Shown here in pieces: positions 57,379 through 64,000 of a DNA stretch of 64,000 nucleotides (the first letter of the stretch is position 1; every line of letters begins with the position of its first letter). The notes beneath the pieces were generated by a model. The model did no database searches. It saw only the letters and a list, made by a program, of their open reading frames with translations, and had not been told where the DNA came from. This stretch comes from a virus (lineage: Duplodnaviria; Caudoviricetes), in IMG/VR virus record IMGVR_UViG_3300031992_000019; one strand, written 5' to 3'. The translations under genes were made by a program, and so were the position numbers.

Positions 57379-58087
57379 AATATAAAAAGTGTTTGGTTTG
57401 ACGCCGCAAAGATATGTAATTTTATTGACATATCCAACATTTTCGCGATAATTTTAACGAATTTTAATCGAATAAGCCAATATTTAACAATCATTAAAGG
57501 TCGGTGGGGTTGTTTGCCGCCAAAAAGTTGACCGCTCTCGAATAATCGGGTGCGATGTCCATCAGGTCGGGGTTGTTGTAGAATTGTTTTGATACCTTCT
57601 TGCAAGCGTGGTGCGCCAGCATCTCGGCAAAGTCACTTGAGGATTTGCTCACGATATACTCTGCCGCCTTTTCCTCGCCCAAGTTGGAAACAAGTTCCTT
57701 TAGGCATTGCGCGAAGTCAACCGATGCCTCTGCCTTAACTTTCATAGCATCTGAACTTTCTCACCTTGAAGATTTCCTTGACCTTCCCCTCCCTATGAAG
57801 TTCTTTCAACAGTTTTAGGAAGCACTTGATTTTAGACCTGTCCTTCACGTAGGCAATCATATCAATGTCCCCGATGTCGGTGGTGTCATTTTTTGAGTCC
57901 CAGATGCCCATATACCACATCCCGACAATCTTTTCCGAATAGAAGATGTTCATATCAAAATATAGTTAGTTGTTGTTTTTCTTGCTCTACGCGCGAGGTC
58001 AGTTTGTATGGAGGGTCGGTGACTACCAAATCCACACTTCCGTCTTGGAGAGTGGACATAAATTCAACGCAGTCCACGTTAAAGATT

Positions 58088-58726
58088 TCATTCATCGAAT
58101 AATGTTCCTTGTTTTACTATTTGTCCGTTTACCTTGAACTCCCCGTGGCACTCCTTTTGGAATCGTTCGTTGCCCTTGTCGAAGAAGTCCTTGTTTATCT
58201 CACACCCCCAGAAGTCAAAGCCTAACTTGTAGGCAGCGATTCTACTACTTTCACTGCCCATCATCGGGTCGAAGATTTTACCCCCCCCATTGAGATAAGT
58301 ATTCAACAACCAGCCGTATACTTCTACTGGCTTGGATGTCGGGTGAATCTTCCCCTTGAAATAGCACGAAATCTGCACATATCTTGACACCGTTCCGAGG
58401 TTTTCCGAAAGCGAGGCTATCTCAACTTGTGAGTACCTATCTGCTCCCCTCACCATCTTGTCCCACGCGACAAATCCCTTGAACGGATAGCCAAAGTTGT
58501 TTGCACCGAAGATTATCTGCGCCTCGCTCACCCTCCTTAACTCCTTGAAGAACTCCTCATTAGGCTTGTTTCCGAAGTTGTCCATACCAATGTCGCGCAT
58601 CTCCTTTTGCGGTGCGTTCTCGCTCTCATCCCTATACGGAGGGTCTGCGATAGCCAAGTCAAAGAACTTGTTGGGGATAGTCCTCATATATTCCATGCAA
58701 TCGCAATTAAATACATCGCTTATCAT
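58088..58726 (-). CDS. N4/N6 DNA methyltransferase (beta class)
   Basis: ADPPY, IHPTSKP, FDPMMGS, GCEI. Confidence 0.9.
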   Translation of the reverse strand: MISDVFNCDCMEYMRTIPNKFFDLAIADPPYRDESENAPQKEMRDIGMDNFGNKPNEEFFKELRRVSEAQIIFGANNFGYPFKGFVAWDKMVRGADRYSQVEIASLSENLGTVSRYVQISCYFKGKIHPTSKPVEVYGWLLNTYLNGGGKIFDPMMGSESSRIAAYKLGFDFWGCEINKDFFDKGNERFQKECHGEFKVNGQIVKQGTLFDE

Positions 58727-58856: not shown

Positions 58857-59762
58857 TCATATAAACAGTTCCGATACATATCTACTTGCAAAAGGCTTTT
58901 GTGTATATATCTTTTCTGCCATTATAGATTGTTTCCCATTTGCCGACATTATACTTCTTAATCCGCACATAGCAATAGGAGCGAAACCTTCTGGCATATC
59001 ATACTCGCTAACAAATATAGGAAAATCCAATGACAATGCCCATTTATAGAAGGCATCGTGGTCAAATGGGCAATTATACTCATTTGTCCCCTTATATGGA
59101 ATATCACAATAGACAACATCGCCTTCTTTTATTTCAATATCACGATAATCGCTTTGCAGACTTTCCAACCTTTGCAGACTTTCCAACCTTTGCAGACTTT
59201 CCAACCTTTGCAGACTTTCCAACATCTCTATTGATTGTAGTCTTTCAACACTACACAATTCCGAATCTCTTCCGACAAGTCCGTTTGCCAAGGTTTTCCA
59301 AGAGGTATATCTTTGTGATATGTCTTTTCCTTTCACTTTACCACTTATGCCTAATTCTTCTGCGGCTTTCATATCGTCATAGAAAATGGCGAAATGTGCG
59401 GCTCTTTTTAAGGCTTCAACATCTCTTCCGTAGGCATACGTCCGTAGGTCGTTGCCGAACGAGAAACAAATTGCCGCATACGCATCGGTGTCTTTCAGTT
59501 TGAAGAAGTCCTCTCGGCTTATCCATCTATCTTCACCCTTGAAGCCTCCGTGAGCCGCGCGAAGAAACGCATCGGGCATCATCCCGTTTATGTCGTTGAT
59601 GAGGAAATCGTGCCACCTTCCGCTTAACATAGCGCAATGTGTGACCGAACATCCACCGCAGAACATATCAACCAGTCTGCGCCCCGTGGGTAGCACACTT
59701 ACCACCCATTCGGCTATCCTTGCCTTACTGCCCTTGTAGGGCATTCCGTATTTTCTTGCCAT
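58857..59762 (-). CDS. Dam-like N6-adenine DNA methyltransferase
   Basis: PYKGSK, DMFCGG, INDI, VYCDIPY. Confidence 0.88.
   Translation of the reverse strand: MARKYGMPYKGSKARIAEWVVSVLPTGRRLVDMFCGGCSVTHCAMLSGRWHDFLINDINGMMPDAFLRAAHGGFKGEDRWISREDFFKLKDTDAYAAICFSFGNDLRTYAYGRDVEALKRAAHFAIFYDDMKAAEELGISGKVKGKDISQRYTSWKTLANGLVGRDSELCSVERLQSIEMLESLQRLESLQRLESLQRLESLQSDYRDIEIKEGDVVYCDIPYKGTNEYNCPFDHDAFYKWALSLDFPIFVSEYDMPEGFAPIAMCGLRSIMSANGKQSIMAEKIYTQKPFASRYVSELFI
59152..59223. repeat. 18-bp tandem repeat x4 (LESLQR)
   Basis: four exact copies of ctttgcagactttccaac. Confidence 0.95.
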
Positions 59763-59919: not shown

Positions 59920-60468
59920 TTACTTCCCATACCTCGGAACATTACAACCAATGAAATTTCCAAAGACAATCACACACCAATAGGGCAGATAATCCCTCAC
60001 CAACTCCCAGTCCTCCAAGGAGGAGAACATATAGAAGCAGTCGGCTATTGAGTGATAGAATCCGCACGAAATGAACAAGGTTATGCCCCAGATGAGGGGT
60101 AACTTGTTCCCCTCCCTCGCAGCACCCACCACGAAGGTCATTATCATACCGCAGAGAATGGAACGTGTGAAACAAGTAAGATACCCAGCCTCTATCCGCG
60201 TGAAGATGATGTCCGCTCCGTCAAACCCTATCAACAAAGCACCGACAAGACACCCCACGCAGTTCAAGACGAGGGTGAGAACCAATTTTTCCCACTCTTT
60301 TATTGAGGAGTAGTCGAAAAACCCAGCCATACCCGTATATAAGGGGTACTTGTAGTGGATGATGGTCAGTAACCCGAAGGCGAAGAGTACCGCGCCCTCC
60401 AGACCTCCTAATTTCAGATATGCCGCACCTCCCAAGGAGATGCAGATGCCAGCCAATATACCTTTCAT
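59920..60468 (-). CDS. formate/nitrite transporter (FNT)-like membrane protein
   Basis: GILAGICISLG, LFAFGL, LYTG, SILCG, FISCGFYHSIAD, GNFIG. Confidence 0.8.
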   Translation of the reverse strand: MKGILAGICISLGGAAYLKLGGLEGAVLFAFGLLTIIHYKYPLYTGMAGFFDYSSIKEWEKLVLTLVLNCVGCLVGALLIGFDGADIIFTRIEAGYLTCFTRSILCGMIMTFVVGAAREGNKLPLIWGITLFISCGFYHSIADCFYMFSSLEDWELVRDYLPYWCVIVFGNFIGCNVPRYGK

Positions 60469-60534: not shown

Positions 60535-61083
60535 TTAGAATAGTGTTAGTTGTCCCTCTGGCTCTGGAGGGTAGAATAAAGATTCAAAGATACAAGTGAG
60601 TACATTAACCGTAATAGAGTTGCCGTACAATTTATACATAGCAGAATTACTCAACCCCGAACTCTCCAAGATGTCTATTTGTTCATCATCCACATCTTGC
60701 AAACGTCCGCATTCCCTTGGGGTTAGCTTGCGTATTCTCAACCTTACGGGTGTGATGTCGGTGAGGAACTGGTCTGCCGCATTTCCTTCGGAGATTGTGG
60801 TCAGGAGTTCTGCCCCTTGGAGAATGTGTGTTGCAACCCATTCGTTCTCCTGCTCGGTAAACTTGTTTCTCCACTTTGCGAAAAGTTTGGAGAGAGCATC
60901 CACGAAAGCGGTTGATAGGTTTCTGTCACCCTCTTCGGACAACCTCTGCTGCTCTTCGGAGGTGAGTTTCCAAATCTCCGCAGCCTCCTCTTGGACTTCA
61001 TCGTCACCATACTGTTTCTTCAGTTTCAGATAGCCGATTCTCAAAGCCTTGTTGAGTTCGGAACGATTTTGATGCTTGAACAT
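60535..61083 (-). CDS. C5-cytosine methyltransferase C-terminal subunit (motifs IX-X)
   Basis: IRKLTPRECGRLQ, YKLYGNSITVNVL. Confidence 0.88.
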   Translation of the reverse strand: MFKHQNRSELNKALRIGYLKLKKQYGDDEVQEEAAEIWKLTSEEQQRLSEEGDRNLSTAFVDALSKLFAKWRNKFTEQENEWVATHILQGAELLTTISEGNAADQFLTDITPVRLRIRKLTPRECGRLQDVDDEQIDILESSGLSNSAMYKLYGNSITVNVLTCIFESLFYPPEPEGQLTLF

Positions 61084-61084
61084 A

Positions 61085-61261
61085 TTATATCTCGATTAAA
61101 ATGAATACTTTCGGTTCGTGTGCCGTTGTTACGGTCATTGATTCGTTGTAGGGACTATTTATCTGCAATTCGCTTACCCCTCGCTTGTCTGGAGTGTCCT
61201 GATAGAAACGGATATTCCCATTCGGCATAAACTTCCAGCGGATAGACTCCTTACGTTTCAT
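61085..61261 (-). CDS. TRD-like mini-gene 16 (58 aa)
   Basis: MKRKESIRWKF...SMTVTTAHEPKVFILIEI. Confidence 0.7.
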   Translation of the reverse strand: MKRKESIRWKFMPNGNIRFYQDTPDKRGVSELQINSPYNESMTVTTAHEPKVFILIEI

Positions 61262-61397
61262 AAAGTTCTATTAGTTTCCACCCCGCTCTCAAGGCATTTC
61301 TGCTCCAAGTCTGCGTGAGTGTGCCTATGTAATGTCGCTTTTCTGGGGGAGGTATTACCCCATTGTAGTCATCATAAGGAATATATCTACGTTTCAT
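61251..61397 (-). CDS. TRD-like mini-gene 15 (48 aa)
   Basis: MKRRYIPYDDYN...IGTLTQTWSRNALRAGWKLIELYET. Confidence 0.75.
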   Translation of the reverse strand: MKRRYIPYDDYNGVIPPPEKRHYIGTLTQTWSRNALRAGWKLIELYET

Positions 61398-61533
61398 ATA
61401 TCTCTACAAGTTTCCATCCGTGGCGGGGAGCGGGATTGCCAAACTGCGTGGTTATTGCCCCGATGAGCTTCTGCTCCCAGTTTGGCGGTGATGAATTATA
61501 ATCGTCAAAGGCGGTTATCTTACGTTTCCTCAT
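61387..61533 (-). CDS. TRD-like mini-gene 14 (48 aa)
   Basis: MRKRKITAFDDYN...IGAITTQFGNPAPRHGWKLVEIYET. Confidence 0.75.
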   Translation of the reverse strand: MRKRKITAFDDYNSSPPNWEQKLIGAITTQFGNPAPRHGWKLVEIYET

Positions 61534-61711
61534 ATTCTACAATCAAAGAATCCTTGGTGAAGAAGGTTGTCACGCACGAGCAGACACCATCGTTGCCAGG
61601 ATATGCGTACTTCGCGTTGAATTTCGCCCCGTTCTCTCCGTGGAGATGTCTGCGCTCTCGCTCCTCGTCCGTGCGTTGCCTACGCAAGCCTTGCGCGTCA
61701 AACCTCGTCAT
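61520..61711 (-). CDS. TRD-like mini-gene 13 (63 aa)
   Basis: RTDEERERRH...DGVCSCVTTFFTKDSLIVEYEET. Confidence 0.75.
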   Translation of the reverse strand: MTRFDAQGLRRQRTDEERERRHLHGENGAKFNAKYAYPGNDGVCSCVTTFFTKDSLIVEYEET

Positions 61712-61856
61712 ATCCGATAACCATATAGTCTTTTTGCAGACTTGTTATTGCATTACTTGTCCCACCTCCGCGAATCTCCAACCTTTGTCGGTGTTCGGAG
61801 TTGTGCCAGTCGCCATCGGAGCGACCACGGAACGCGCAGGCTTTAACATTCGTCAT
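61698..61856 (-). CDS. TRD-like mini-gene 12 (52 aa)
   Basis: ACAFRGR...QRLEIRGGGTSNAITSLQKDYMVIGYDEV. Confidence 0.78.
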   Translation of the reverse strand: MTNVKACAFRGRSDGDWHNSEHRQRLEIRGGGTSNAITSLQKDYMVIGYDEV

Positions 61857-62061
61857 AGTATGCTATGTTATATCTGCCAAGCACTTCTCCAGAGCAGATG
61901 GACGGAGCGATGCCGTATATACCGTGGATGCGGTGGGGTTGAGAGTGCATCCGACTATTGAGTATCGAGCCTTCGTTGAAACGGAGTTTGCCGTGTATGA
62001 ATCCGCAGAAGATGTCGTCATTGCTGATGCTACGGATTTCATCGTAGAACATTGTTATCAT
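61843..62061 (-). CDS. TRD-like mini-gene 11 (72 aa)
   Basis: SQPHRIHGIYGIAPSICSG...IAYYDEC. Confidence 0.7.
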   Translation of the reverse strand: MITMFYDEIRSISNDDIFCGFIHGKLRFNEGSILNSRMHSQPHRIHGIYGIAPSICSGEVLGRYNIAYYDEC

Positions 62062-62207
62062 ACCTCATTGTACTCTACCACTCTCATACAAGTTTGGAAT
62101 CCAGTACCCTCCAACGTGTGAACAACGTTCGCCACAACCAAAGGATGAAGATATAGGAGCGACCCCTCCCTATCTCGGACGTGTCCCAAAAGATGTTTAT
62201 GTTTCAT
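62058..62207 (-). CDS. TRD-like mini-gene 10 (49 aa)
   Basis: LGHVRDREG...VANVVHTLEGTG...VVEYNEV. Confidence 0.7.
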   Translation of the reverse strand: MKHKHLLGHVRDREGSLLYLHPLVVANVVHTLEGTGFQTCMRVVEYNEV

Positions 62208-62337
62208 AATACTCTAACACTCCCATCTCTCTTCGCCCACCTTTCGAACAGACAATATTGAGGGAATAGTGGTTGGACGTAAGAAGTGCTGCTGCACATC
62301 CGTCTGCCGTTTCGTTGAATATTCTACGTTTCCTCAT
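62197..62337 (-). CDS. TRD-like mini-gene 9 (46 aa)
   Basis: MRKRRIFNETADGCAAALLTS...MGVLEYYET. Confidence 0.72.
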   Translation of the reverse strand: MRKRRIFNETADGCAAALLTSNHYSLNIVCSKGGRREMGVLEYYET

Positions 62338-62461
62338 ACTCAATAACAAGTTGTCCCCTATCGGACATAGGATTTGCAGGGACGCAGAACGCGATGTCCT
62401 TGTAGGAGTAGTACCCAGCACCCCTATCACCGACCATCTGGCATATCTTATATTTCCTCAT
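62324..62461 (-). CDS. TRD-like mini-gene 8 (45 aa)
   Basis: MRKYKICQMVGDRG...IAFCVPANPMSDRGQLVIEYEET. Confidence 0.72.
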   Translation of the reverse strand: MRKYKICQMVGDRGAGYYSYKDIAFCVPANPMSDRGQLVIEYEET

Positions 62462-62588
62462 ACCTTACGCAAAGCAAAGGAGATTTATAATCGGTCTGCA
62501 ATATCGTTGGCGCGATGTTGAAAGACTCCCTTATCTCGCCGAACTTCTTGAGAGGATTAGGACAAATGGAAGCCTTACTCATTCTCAT
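62448..62588 (-). CDS. TRD-like mini-gene 7 (46 aa)
   Basis: IAPTILQTDYKSPLLCVRYEEI. Confidence 0.72.
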   Translation of the reverse strand: MRMSKASICPNPLKKFGEIRESFNIAPTILQTDYKSPLLCVRYEEI

Positions 62589-62724
62589 AGACTATGATTT
62601 TCGGTTCTACGCCAGAATGACAACCTACTCCGATGGTAGGGCACAAACCCCTCGGATGACACACCACCCCATTTTGTCGGGAATGATAGCAATATCCCAC
62701 AATGATAATCCTACTGCTCGCCAT
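62575..62724 (-). CDS. TRD-like mini-gene 6 (49 aa)
   Basis: RQNGVVCHPRGLCPTIGVGCHSGVEPKIIVYENE. Confidence 0.75.
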   Translation of the reverse strand: MASSRIIIVGYCYHSRQNGVVCHPRGLCPTIGVGCHSGVEPKIIVYENE

Positions 62725-62887
62725 AGACGCTCACGAAGAAATGATTTCTGAACGATATACCCACGCAGATTGTTCCCGCGATGTCATTCGTTATCTGGTT
62801 GTAGTCATCTATCCAAATGTTCGGTCGGTCTATCCTGCCCTCTCTTATCATCTTGTGGAGAGTCTTGCAGCCGTTAATCTTCCGCAT
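62711..62887 (-). CDS. TRD-like mini-gene 5 (58 aa)
   Basis: WIDDYNQ...IAGTICVGISFRNHFFVSVYGEQ. Confidence 0.72.
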   Translation of the reverse strand: MRKINGCKTLHKMIREGRIDRPNIWIDDYNQITNDIAGTICVGISFRNHFFVSVYGEQ

Positions 62888-63044
62888 AGTCGCTCACGAA
62901 AAATATTCCTGCGTCATACCTCGCCCTTATCGTACCAGCATATCCATCAAAGACGATTTGGTTGTAGGTGTCCAGATACTGACCGCCACGAAAGACCTTA
63001 CCGCTCGACAATAGCGATTTCAACCTTGTCCTATCGTTCTTCAT
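62874..63044 (-). CDS. TRD-like mini-gene 4 (56 aa)
   Basis: YLDTYNQ...YAGTIRARYDAGIFFVSDYAED. Confidence 0.72.
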   Translation of the reverse strand: MKNDRTRLKSLLSSGKVFRGGQYLDTYNQIVFDGYAGTIRARYDAGIFFVSDYAED

Positions 63045-63174
63045 ATTCCATTACTGCCGTTGCCCCAAGTCCGTCACTCCTGATGAAGTTCGCGACTCCA
63101 TTCTTGAAATACTGCGCCTTGATGGTTCGTGCCGTACATCCTTCGGCAGGGTTGATGATTCTCTTATTGCTCAT
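63031..63174 (-). CDS. TRD-like mini-gene 3 (47 aa)
   Basis: INPAEGCTARTIKAQYFKNGVANFIRSDGLGATAVMEYEER. Confidence 0.78.
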   Translation of the reverse strand: MSNKRIINPAEGCTARTIKAQYFKNGVANFIRSDGLGATAVMEYEER

Positions 63175-63304
63175 AATACTCCATTGCACCCGTTGCCGCG
63201 AAAGTACCCTCTCTAACGAGGTTGGCGGTGGAGGTCTGCTGATATTGCGCCTTTATAGTTCGACATAAACCTTTCTGGTCATTCAAGGGTTTAACTCTCT
63301 TCAT
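63164..63304 (-). CDS. TRD-like mini-gene 2 (46 aa)
   Basis: PLNDQKGLCRTIKAQYQQTSTANLVREGTFAATGAMEYYEQ. Confidence 0.78.
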   Translation of the reverse strand: MKRVKPLNDQKGLCRTIKAQYQQTSTANLVREGTFAATGAMEYYEQ

Positions 63305-63464
63305 AGGCTATCACCGCAGTCATAGGGAAATGTCCGAGGGAGAGGACATTGGTGTCACCCATACCAGCACCGTATCTTGTCGTGATGGTCGCGGTACATC
63401 CGTCCCTTGTGCAGGGACAGGCCCCGTAATACCCCCCCCTAAATCGGAACAGGTCAATCTTCAT
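63291..63464 (-). CDS. TRD-like mini-gene 1 (57 aa)
   Basis: TRDGCTATITTRYGAG...HFPMTAVIAYEES. Confidence 0.75.
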   Translation of the reverse strand: MKIDLFRFRGGYYGACPCTRDGCTATITTRYGAGMGDTNVLSLGHFPMTAVIAYEES

Positions 63465-64000
63465 GCTGTCTGCGGAAATAGCTCAACATCTTGTCGGAGA
63501 TGAAGTATTTCTCGTCAACCTCGTCCTCAAGGACATCAATCAGGTGTTTCTCCAGAGGGAAAGGCTTGGGGAACGTGTAACGTGGCAGCGGGTCTTCATC
63601 GTCAATACGGATGGAAACCAAGAAGATTCTCTCTCTATTCTGCGGCACGCCGTAACTCTTGGAGTTGAGGATTTCACCGCTTGAATAATAACCCTGCTTT
63701 TCGAGGTAGAGTTGCCAGTCGAGAAAGTAACCACGGAATCGGTTGCTTACAAGGTTCTTCACGTTCTCCATAAGCAGATACTTTGGTTTCTTCTCCTCGA
63801 TTGCTTTTGCGCATACCCAAAGGAGAGAGGAACGTGTGCCGCTATCCTTTTCAAGACCTAACATTTTACCCGCTTGGCTGACATCGGTGCAGGGGAAAGA
63901 GTAAGTGAAAAGGTCGAAATCGGGAACCTTGCTCCAATCAATCTTGCAGATGTCACCGTAATTCTTGTCGGCAGAATCAGGGAACAATGCCTTATGAGCA
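63454..64000 (-). CDS. C5-cytosine methyltransferase N-terminal catalytic subunit (5' end outside window)
   Basis: GDI, YSFPCTDVSQAG (motif IV), MENVK (VI), GVPQNRERIF (VIII), VDEKYF then stop. Confidence 0.92.
   Translation of the reverse strand, partial: AHKALFPDSADKNYGDICKIDWSKVPDFDLFTYSFPCTDVSQAGKMLGLEKDSGTRSSLLWVCAKAIEEKKPKYLLMENVKNLVSNRFRGYFLDWQLYLEKQGYYSSGEILNSKSYGVPQNRERIFLVSIRIDDEDPLPRYTFPKPFPLEKHLIDVLEDEVDEKYFISDKMLSYFRRQHED

Follow-up and report, generated by a model that had tools for sequence, protein, structure and literature searches.

How does a phage make one DNA cytosine-C5 methyltransferase (C5-MTase) when the coding sequence for the enzyme is spread over 18 open reading frames (ORFs)? 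The question is raised by IMG/VR virus record IMGVR_UViG_3300031992_000019, a gut or rumen phage of 165 kb, from which a stretch of 64,000 nt was analysed (hereafter the window; bases 45836–109835 of the 165,288-bp record, which CheckV rates as complete). On its minus strand, two catalytic halves (N-half and C-half) enclose 16 mini-ORFs (T01–T16). We consider, with a probability of roughly two in three, that together they encode a multi-subunit, multispecific C5-MTase in which separately translated target recognition domains (TRDs) plug into one catalytic core. The locus is real, conserved and recurrent, and it apparently represents an undescribed variant within a known kind of enzyme.

The original prediction, made from the window's sequence alone, placed the end of the catalytic half at 63454 and motifs IX–X in a separate gene (60535..61083), with the 2.4 kb between them tiled without gaps by 16 ORFs of 45–72 aa, three pairs of which were paralogous. 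This map was borne out, with the starts of the mini-ORFs refined, and reads as follows in coding order.

N-half: 63454..64000, minus strand, running on to about 64179 beyond the window (L001:4420-5145); C5-MTase half of 241 aa with motifs I, IV, VI and VIII
T01: 63291..63464, minus strand; mini-gene, 57 aa, core CTATITTRYG, with the sole poly-G tract of the array
G8 tract in T01: 63432..63439, on the coding (minus) strand; codons 9–11, in frame (ON)
T02: 63164..63304, minus strand; mini-gene, 46 aa, core CRTIKAQY
T03: 63031..63174, minus strand; mini-gene, 47 aa, core ARTIKAQY
T04: 62874..63044, minus strand; mini-gene, 56 aa, core GTIRARYDAG
T05: 62711..62887, minus strand; mini-gene, 58 aa, core AGTICVGIS
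T06: 62575..62724, minus strand; mini-gene, 49 aa, core LCPTIGVGCHSGVEPK
T07: 62448..62588, minus strand; mini-gene, 46 aa, core IAPTILQTDYKSP
T08: 62324..62461, minus strand; mini-gene, 45 aa
T09: 62197..62337, minus strand; mini-gene, 46 aa
T10: 62058..62207, minus strand; mini-gene, 49 aa, core ANVVHTLEGTG
T11: 61843..62061, minus strand; mini-gene, 72 aa, core RIHGIYGIAPSICSG
T12: 61698..61856, minus strand; mini-gene, 52 aa, family A-x-RGR...Q-x-LE...N-x-IT-S-x-QKD
T13: 61520..61711, minus strand; mini-gene, 63 aa, core CSCVTTFFTKDS
T14: 61387..61533, minus strand; mini-gene, 48 aa, core IGAITTQFG
T15: 61251..61397, minus strand; mini-gene, 48 aa, paralogue of T14
T16: 61085..61261, minus strand; mini-gene, 58 aa, core MTVTTAHEPK, ending in ...ILIEI without a Tyr-Glu tail
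C-half: 60535..61083, minus strand; 182 aa, comprising a helical N-terminal domain (residues 1–110), motif IX (RIRKLTPRECGRLQ) and motif X (GNSITV)

The mini-genes cover 61085..63464 completely. The paralogous pairs share 40% (T02/T03, E 4e-9), 39% (T04/T05, E 5e-6) and 45% (T14/T15, E 1e-12) identity, and from this resemblance the members of each pair may share targets. The ten other modules have no detectable likeness to one another except in their tails. Three or more consecutive mini-ORFs follow the N-half in 18 of the 240 related loci. The array of 16 is the largest among the loci examined, the next being that of L091 with 13 modules.

Both halves match the C5-MTase profile PF00145, the N-half at profile positions 44–214 (E 5e-42) and the C-half at positions 197–322 (E 9e-10). 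Motifs I (FAGYDS), IV (FPCTDVS), VI (ENV) and VIII (QNRERIF) can be read in the N-half, in which C97, E138-N139-V140, R182 and R184 are invariant across an alignment of 71 sequences (A2). The C-half contains motifs IX (RIRKLTPRE) and X (GNSITV), and its residues R118, E124, R127, G154, N155 and I157 are invariant in alignment A3. Instead of the single polypeptide, with all motifs and the TRD, that is usual in the C5-MTase family, the locus consists of 18 separate ORFs with stop codons in all frames between them. Residues 1–110 of the C-half form a five-helix domain in an AlphaFold2 model (pLDDT about 80), for which a Foldseek search of the PDB returned no match at E 0.001 or better. This domain is 49–91% identical in nine database proteins, all of them C-halves and two of them with a TRD fused ahead of it, and it may be an adaptor. 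In one related locus (L096:2707-3699), two unrelated ORFs (126 and 121 aa) stand between the TRD array and a minimal C-half of 81 aa that comprises motifs IX–X only. Two cultured phages that carry N-half homologues, BMBphi and JBP901 of Bacillus, each encode an MTase of ordinary full length, and arrays are absent in both. A nucleotide search of deposited phages gave a sole match, of 111 nt, in Streptococcus prophage MTases.

The original prediction read each mini-ORF as a single TRD. Homologues of T04, T05, T10, T12, T14 and T15 occur in frame as TRDs within single-chain methyltransferases, and on this homology these six mini-ORFs are TRDs. Some of these are distant enzymes in which T05-like and T12-like TRDs occur in one chain: in the four-TRD MTases of the uncultivated L008–L011 (509–512 aa), the two segments adjoin in frame in the region from motif VIII to motif IX. 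The TRD position matched by T05 in these enzymes is also that matched by T04, and T05 is 44% identical to a TRD inside the 512-aa single-chain MTase of L009. Segments resembling T10 and T14/T15 are fused inside a 460-codon ORF of L100, T14 is fused in frame to the C-half in P0004/L245, and a T16 homologue is fused to motifs IX–X in L092. The T12 family has the signature A-x-RGR...Q-x-LE...N-x-I/L-T-S/T-V-QKD, with A8, R10, G11, R12, E27, N35, K42 and D43 invariant among 19 sequences (alignment A4). When its profile was run against 1.84 billion library proteins, it matched 2,859 cluster representatives, mostly within MTases of 200–650 aa, while some were free proteins of 62–91 aa. Pfam searches with single mini-ORFs gave no matches, the Pfam model not covering TRDs, and in a sequence search of the PDB with the L009 enzyme, matches to M.MpeI and M.HhaI were limited to their catalytic parts and last TRD. 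The remaining, untraced modules show by eye the usual Thr-Ile/Leu/Val core, in line with the Thr-Ile/Leu type proposed originally. One protein of 1,480 aa with 18 ‘TRD’ stretches (P0065) proved to be an unrelated repeat protein and a false lead.

On the gene map, the 16 modules occupy the position at which single-chain multispecific enzymes carry several tandem TRDs of about 40–50 aa, from motif VIII to motif IX. By the gene structure they are not covalently part of an enzyme chain: every module has an ATG and a stop codon to itself, with a change of frame from one to the next. Relatives were also checked for one continuous ORF, which could have pointed to an assembly error or decay. Close relatives keep the split, and the single-chain enzymes with T05-like and T12-like TRDs are distant, with an N-half about 50% identical to that of the window.

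The junctions follow a strict pattern that is not due to chance. From T01 to T16, the mini-ORFs overlap the end of the upstream ORF, including its stop codon, by 11, 14, 11, 14, 14, 14, 14, 14, 14, 11, 4, 14, 14, 14, 11 and 11 nt, and each lies in the +1 frame relative to the previous one, with the single exception of T11, whose ATG forms an ATGA overlap with the T10 stop. A single nucleotide separates the C-half ATG from the T16 stop. Each of the three stop codons is used in the array. Except in T16, a module ends in a hydrophobic stretch and a Tyr, after which come an acidic or small residue, another one or two residues and the stop, and the next ATG sits within this tail. The hydrophobic-Tyr-Glu type of tail noted originally was recovered on these terms, the residue after Tyr being Glu, Asp, Ala or Gly. 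The ATG is built from TAT-G at 13 junctions, from CAT-G at the end of the N-half (...RRQHED-TGA) for T01, from ATT-ATG for T03 and from ATGA for T11. The ATG of T03 spans the second Tyr codon of TAT-TAT-GAG and is hence preceded by ATT. T10 ends in TAC-AAT-GAG, which holds an ATG whose frame closes after nine codons; its TAC is the sole junction Tyr codon other than TAT, and here the ATG for the next module comes from elsewhere.

The base after the junction Tyr codon is always G, even where the next residue is Ala, Gly or Asp, and across 38 long ORFs of the window TAT makes up only 55% of the codons for Tyr. For these reasons the start codon itself is under selection at the nucleotide level, beyond that on a Tyr-Glu peptide motif. 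This fits the single-chain relatives, in which the same TRDs end in YLISDP or SMIAEP and lack Tyr-Glu. The use of the ATG within TAT-GAR also accounts for the uniform +1 step. Shine-Dalgarno-like motifs precede 6 of the 38 long ORFs and are found at 13% of random positions, so that their scarcity is equal genome-wide, and the nearest genomic MTase relatives are from Bacteroidales and Prevotella. On both counts the host probably initiates translation without Shine-Dalgarno sites, which makes coupled or internal initiation at the junction ATGs plausible. The frames, stops and starts of the junctions are the same in three independent contigs from other samples (L244, L245 and L082).

Two of these contigs, from the Logan assemblies SRR12177538 (L244, covering T10–T16 and the C-half) and SRR29188407 (L245, covering the whole operon), and the more distant L082, whose N-half is 69% identical, allowed selection on the modules to be estimated. 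Module lengths, stops and starts in L244 are identical to those of the window. Across T10–T14 and T16, L244 differs by 48 synonymous and 16 nonsynonymous changes (dS 0.264, dN 0.020), giving a ratio of nonsynonymous to synonymous substitution rates (dN/dS) of 0.076. With a ratio of the corresponding proportions (pN/pS) of 0.17 for the C-half in the same comparison, constraint on the mini-ORFs is at least as strong. T10 has one nonsynonymous difference, T11 and T13 each have a pairwise pN/pS of 0.10, and the T16 protein is identical with 5 synonymous changes. Against L082, the pooled dN/dS of T01–T05 is 0.118, out-of-frame modules included (0.057 for T01, 0.12 for T04 and 0.075 for T05), and the dN of the modules (0.136) is lower than that of the catalytic N-half (0.274). 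Neutral evolution of the modules, which would have undermined the original prediction, does not agree with either comparison.

Orthologues of single modules are likewise conserved: T01 (89% identical in both L082 and L245), T02 (89% in L082), T03 (77% in L082, 83% in L245), T08 (93% in L245), T13 (92% in L245) and T15 (64% in L084). Homologues of T06 occur in L083, L085, L086, L092 and L245, those of T07 in L002 and L087, and further ones of T08 in L002 and L090. Gain and loss of whole modules, the other comparison proposed at the outset, were both apparent in relatives. Ten of the 16 modules occur in L245, with their order unchanged (T01, T03, T04, T05, T06, T08, T10, T12, T13 and T14). T15 is missing from L244 through a deletion that runs exactly from junction to junction, both of which share TATGAAACGTA, and L094 differs from L095 by a 99-nt indel. 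From these alignments, each module acts as an entire cassette when it is conserved, gained or lost. A T07-like module (L087:1707-1838) and a T13-like module (L085:489-653) lie directly upstream of the N-half, so TRD mini-genes are not confined to the space between the halves. In L244, the 3′ end of a TnpB/Cas12f1-like gene (L244:1-240; PF07282, E 3e-7) lies inside T09, of which only the last few codons are left; an insertion sequence (IS) element has inserted into this array. The T12 orthologue of the same contig (L244:640-798) has an in-frame TAG at codon 17, where the window has TGG, and otherwise 5 synonymous and 2 nonsynonymous differences.

The window has only two G/C runs of at least 6, one of which is the G8 tract of T01. 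This tract is in frame in the window, G7 and out of frame in L082, and G9 in L245. T01 thereby shows both marks of a contingency locus, a homopolymer of at least 7 near the 5′ end and frame-changing differences in length, and is the only module here to do so; the other 15 have no tract. The L082 orthologues of T01, T02, T03 and T06 all have a G7–G9 tract about 10 codons past the ATG (G8 in T02) and are all out of frame, with dN/dS still 0.06–0.30. At the tract position, T02, T03 and T06 of the window have non-slippery sequence, and T10 has GGGAGGGG where L244 has G8. By these comparisons the window phage would be a mostly locked-on version, in which T01 alone is still switchable.

In relatives such tracts are common. 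In a set of 160 related loci from viruses and metagenomes, 97 coding-strand tracts of at least G7 fall within 65 kb of split arrays (1.48/kb), as against 0.012/kb outside arrays, an enrichment of more than 100-fold, and 0.02/kb in the variable regions of 89 continuous MTases. They range from G7 to G12. Over 1,296 nt, the sole difference between L042 and L046 is G8 versus G9, and L094 and L095 differ in length at four tracts. Automatic frame calls gave 42 ON and 44 OFF tracts, a crude count because the nearest ATG may not be the true start; as far as the reading frames tell, both states are common. Single switching of modules would be the likeliest selective reason for the split layout, because a slip in any TRD of a single-chain enzyme would cut off motifs IX–X. 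Bacterial genomes, too, contain related split arrays that have tracts, and there they presumably lie in prophages. One of them, in the cultured gut isolate Diplocloster hominis CSJ-3 (L213; NZ_JAWDIY010000002.1:86897-97712), has five tracts (G9, G11, G7, G7 and G10) between the N-half and C-half matches.

Whether the pieces could form one enzyme was addressed with a three-chain fold of N-half, C-half and T12, with alignments of 71, 61 and 19 rows, respectively, and T12 as the scored partner. Such a model had been suggested with the original prediction, and it passed its controls: the ipSAE score was 0.70 overall (0.71, 0.65 and 0.70 in the separate runs) and 0.00 for the best of three controls. 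In calibration, 58 of 80 solved complexes attained this ipSAE level, as did 2 of 110 mismatched pairs, which is only a rough guide here because our own alignments replaced the calibrated ones and three chains were folded. The pLDDT of T12 was 64, and the runs share at least 76% of contacts. In the model, tail residues 44–52 of T12 (YMVIGYDEV) contact residues 113–120 of the C-half, the strand leading into motif IX, and the loop of residues 31–39 (GTSNAITSL) contacts N-half residues 179–183 (motif VIII) and 209–214. The three pieces are thus compatible, as predicted, with a normal C5-MTase architecture, and the conserved hydrophobic tail would have a second, structural role as a docking strand.

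From these observations we propose the following mechanism. The N-half would supply S-adenosylmethionine (AdoMet) binding and catalysis through motifs I–VIII, and the C-half would contribute motifs IX–X behind its helical domain. Each TRD peptide would start at the ATG embedded in the end of the preceding cistron, its translation being probably coupled or independent of Shine-Dalgarno sites. One TRD peptide at a time would dock on the N+C core, its tail strand pairing with the strand into motif IX and its Thr-Ile/Leu loop lying at motif VIII beside the target cytosine. The outcome would be a population of holoenzymes, assembled in trans, with up to about 13–16 specificities, by which phage DNA could be methylated in advance against host restriction enzymes. 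With one cistron per TRD, a single module could be gained, lost or switched while the enzyme itself is preserved.

Several points weigh against this proposal. The case for synthesis and binding of the peptides is indirect, and the success of the complex model may partly reflect memory of single-chain C5-MTases such as M.HhaI and M.MpeI, because T12 was placed where the TRD sits in solved single-chain enzymes. The mini-gene starts have weak or absent Shine-Dalgarno sites. The stretch before motif IX in the C-half (...AELLTTISEGNAADQFLTD...) looks TRD-like, and if it is one, the N-half and C-half alone may already be an enzyme with one specificity. The damage in L244 (TAG in T12, TnpB insertion in T09) implies that individual modules are dispensable. 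The mechanism must also explain how a free peptide of about 50 aa gains affinity and how 16 of them share one site. Finally, a uniform rule of recoding would likewise produce the +1 step seen at 15 of the 16 junctions.

That last point leads to the alternative in which the array is joined by recoding, a side option of the original prediction. A +1 shift or four-base codon at every junction would yield a single MTase of about 1,100 aa with 16–17 TRDs, like a longer M.SPRI. Besides the uniform step, the new frame is open across every stop, and single-chain multi-TRD relatives exist. The junctions have no slippery codon in common, the codon before the stop being AGT, CAA, CGA, GAT, CAG, GAG, ATA, ACG, ACA, GTA, TGT or GTT, and among relatives the distance from the ATG to the upstream stop ranges from 8 to 44 nt, or the overlap is ATGA or TGATG. 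The T11 junction steps by –1, the C-half begins after the T16 stop, and the array of L096 is separated from the 81-aa C-half by two unrelated ORFs. Recoding needs no ATG, yet each junction has one, built from different codons. Quadruplet decoding of TATG in particular is ruled out, because motif I of the N-half, the core of T04 and the C-half all contain an in-frame TAT-G, so that a general rule would destroy the enzyme; stop-codon reassignment is ruled out by the use of all three stops together with the frame changes. We therefore regard recoding as very unlikely. It is harder still to credit that a once continuous multispecific MTase was broken by frameshifts or by assembly errors. Single-chain homologues and the nonsense codon, IS insertion and out-of-frame modules of some relatives would agree with decay, but dN/dS is 0.076–0.118 in each mini-ORF’s own frame, and all 17 breaks fall at module boundaries, each with a start codon, and none inside a module. 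To reach the present layout from a fused gene would take 16 compensating frame changes beyond point mutation, and the same frames recur in contigs from other samples. Since modules are conserved, gained and lost as whole cassettes, neutral decay and assembly error can be set aside.

A less remote but still improbable explanation accepts the mini-proteins as real and denies them the role of specificity subunits here. The N-half and C-half would then make a whole MTase, with the peptides acting as regulators, DNA-binding decoys or inhibitors of host enzymes, or with few of them functional. The possible built-in TRD-like stretch of the C-half, which is our own reading, would agree with this, as would the retention of the locus in relatives whose modules are lost or broken, and the fact that binding is supported by the model only. 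The modules nevertheless always lie between or beside the MTase halves, their homologues occupy working TRD positions in single-chain enzymes, and the model puts the recognition loop of T12 at motif VIII, the proper site of a TRD loop. The minimal 81-aa C-half of L096 has no TRD, which must there come from another chain.

The closest known systems are the multispecific C5-MTases of temperate Bacillus phages (M.SPRI, M.Phi3TI, M.Rho11sI, M.SPBetaI and M.H2I), characterized by Trautner and colleagues, in which one polypeptide carries 3–5 TRDs of about 40–50 aa with Thr-Leu/Ile cores. The present locus resembles them as a phage-borne orphan C5-MTase with tandem short TRDs and a presumed role in protection from several host restriction enzymes; it differs in that each TRD is its own cistron, that there are 16 of them, and that the catalytic domain is cut in two. 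M.AquI and M.EcoHK31I are two-subunit (alpha/beta) C5-MTases with one specificity each; M.AquI is broken within the variable region that separates motif VIII from motif IX, and the M.EcoHK31I genes overlap. Like them, the locus would form a C5-MTase from separately encoded polypeptides, the split being seen here in the genes and the assembly predicted by the model. Unlike these pairs of fixed subunits, it would have three kinds of subunit, including a library of 16 alternative TRDs. In Type I systems, HsdS is a separate, exchangeable specificity subunit whose specificity is switched by a polyG in NgoAV and by hsdS inversions in Mycoplasma and Streptococcus. The logic of one catalytic core re-aimed by an exchangeable subunit is shared, whereas the proteins are unrelated and those systems have an N6-adenine MTase, an HsdS with two TRDs and coiled coils, a function in host defence, and no array of single-TRD mini-genes.

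In phages, poly-G contingency loci have been described in receptor-binding genes of Campylobacter Fletchervirus and in T-even phages (bioRxiv 10.1101/2025.10.21.683753). The same study cites a polyG in a methylase gene of phage BBP-1 and otherwise does not mention methyltransferases. The G8 of T01 and the G7–G12 tracts of its relatives are likewise hypermutable coding homopolymers giving reversible ON/OFF frameshifts; unlike the described loci, which concern receptor-binding or single genes, they would gate a library of MTase specificities module by module. The original prediction knew of no example of separately encoded single TRDs, and our literature search also found no description of free-standing C5 TRD genes. 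On balance we lean towards an undescribed form of C5-MTase, in which a library of free TRDs of about 50 aa docks singly on a split core, as a cytosine-methylase analogue of the Type I HsdS principle, and gives gut and rumen phages an expandable anti-restriction repertoire, with per-module poly-G switching in many lineages.

Should the TRD peptides indeed work in trans, the locus would provide the first natural example of a C5-MTase with specificity as a separate, exchangeable subunit. To our knowledge, the sharing of one catalytic site by several TRDs is still unexplained, and we know of no structure of a multispecific MTase; with one core and one defined 50-aa peptide, the problem would become directly testable. 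The array would also be a natural toolkit of small specificity modules for programmable writing of 5-methylcytosine. It would point to widespread modular counter-defence in gut and rumen phages and prophages, stochastically switched in relatives of this phage, and would bear on phage host range and on the reading of methylation motifs in metagenomes. Because gene callers and pipelines largely miss ORFs of 45–60 aa, the usual annotation of such a locus is that of a truncated or pseudogenised methylase.

Other genes of interest flank the array. Upstream of the N-half and just past the end of the window (L001:5132-6165, minus strand), a 78-aa winged-helix protein (PF14090) and a 134-aa Cro/C1-type helix-turn-helix protein are encoded, which may be regulators of the methylase operon. 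Downstream of the C-half lies a methylation island. At 58857-59762 (minus strand), a D12-class (Dam-like) adenine methyltransferase (PF02086) contains a perfect tandem repeat of 18 nt × 4.0 (59152-59223) that encodes LQRLES four times and could vary in copy number. At 58088-58726 (minus strand) is a small beta-class N6/N4 DNA methyltransferase of 212 aa (PF01555, E 6e-11) with DPPY near its N-terminus. The other G/C run of the window, a G8 at 58281-58288, is in frame and encodes NGGGK just before motif I of this protein, which makes it a candidate for a second phase-variable methylase of the same island. Directly after it, at 57955-58095 (minus strand), a 46-aa ORF resembles the N-terminal fragment (…VVTDPPYK…) of another beta-class methyltransferase, with a weak sole Pfam match (PF01170, E 0.006), and may be broken or split. 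An odd cargo in this island is a membrane protein of the formate/nitrite-transporter family (59920-60468, minus strand; 182 aa; PF01226, E 7e-13), which sits between the C-half and the Dam-like methylase and has a 184-aa counterpart at the same place in L244.

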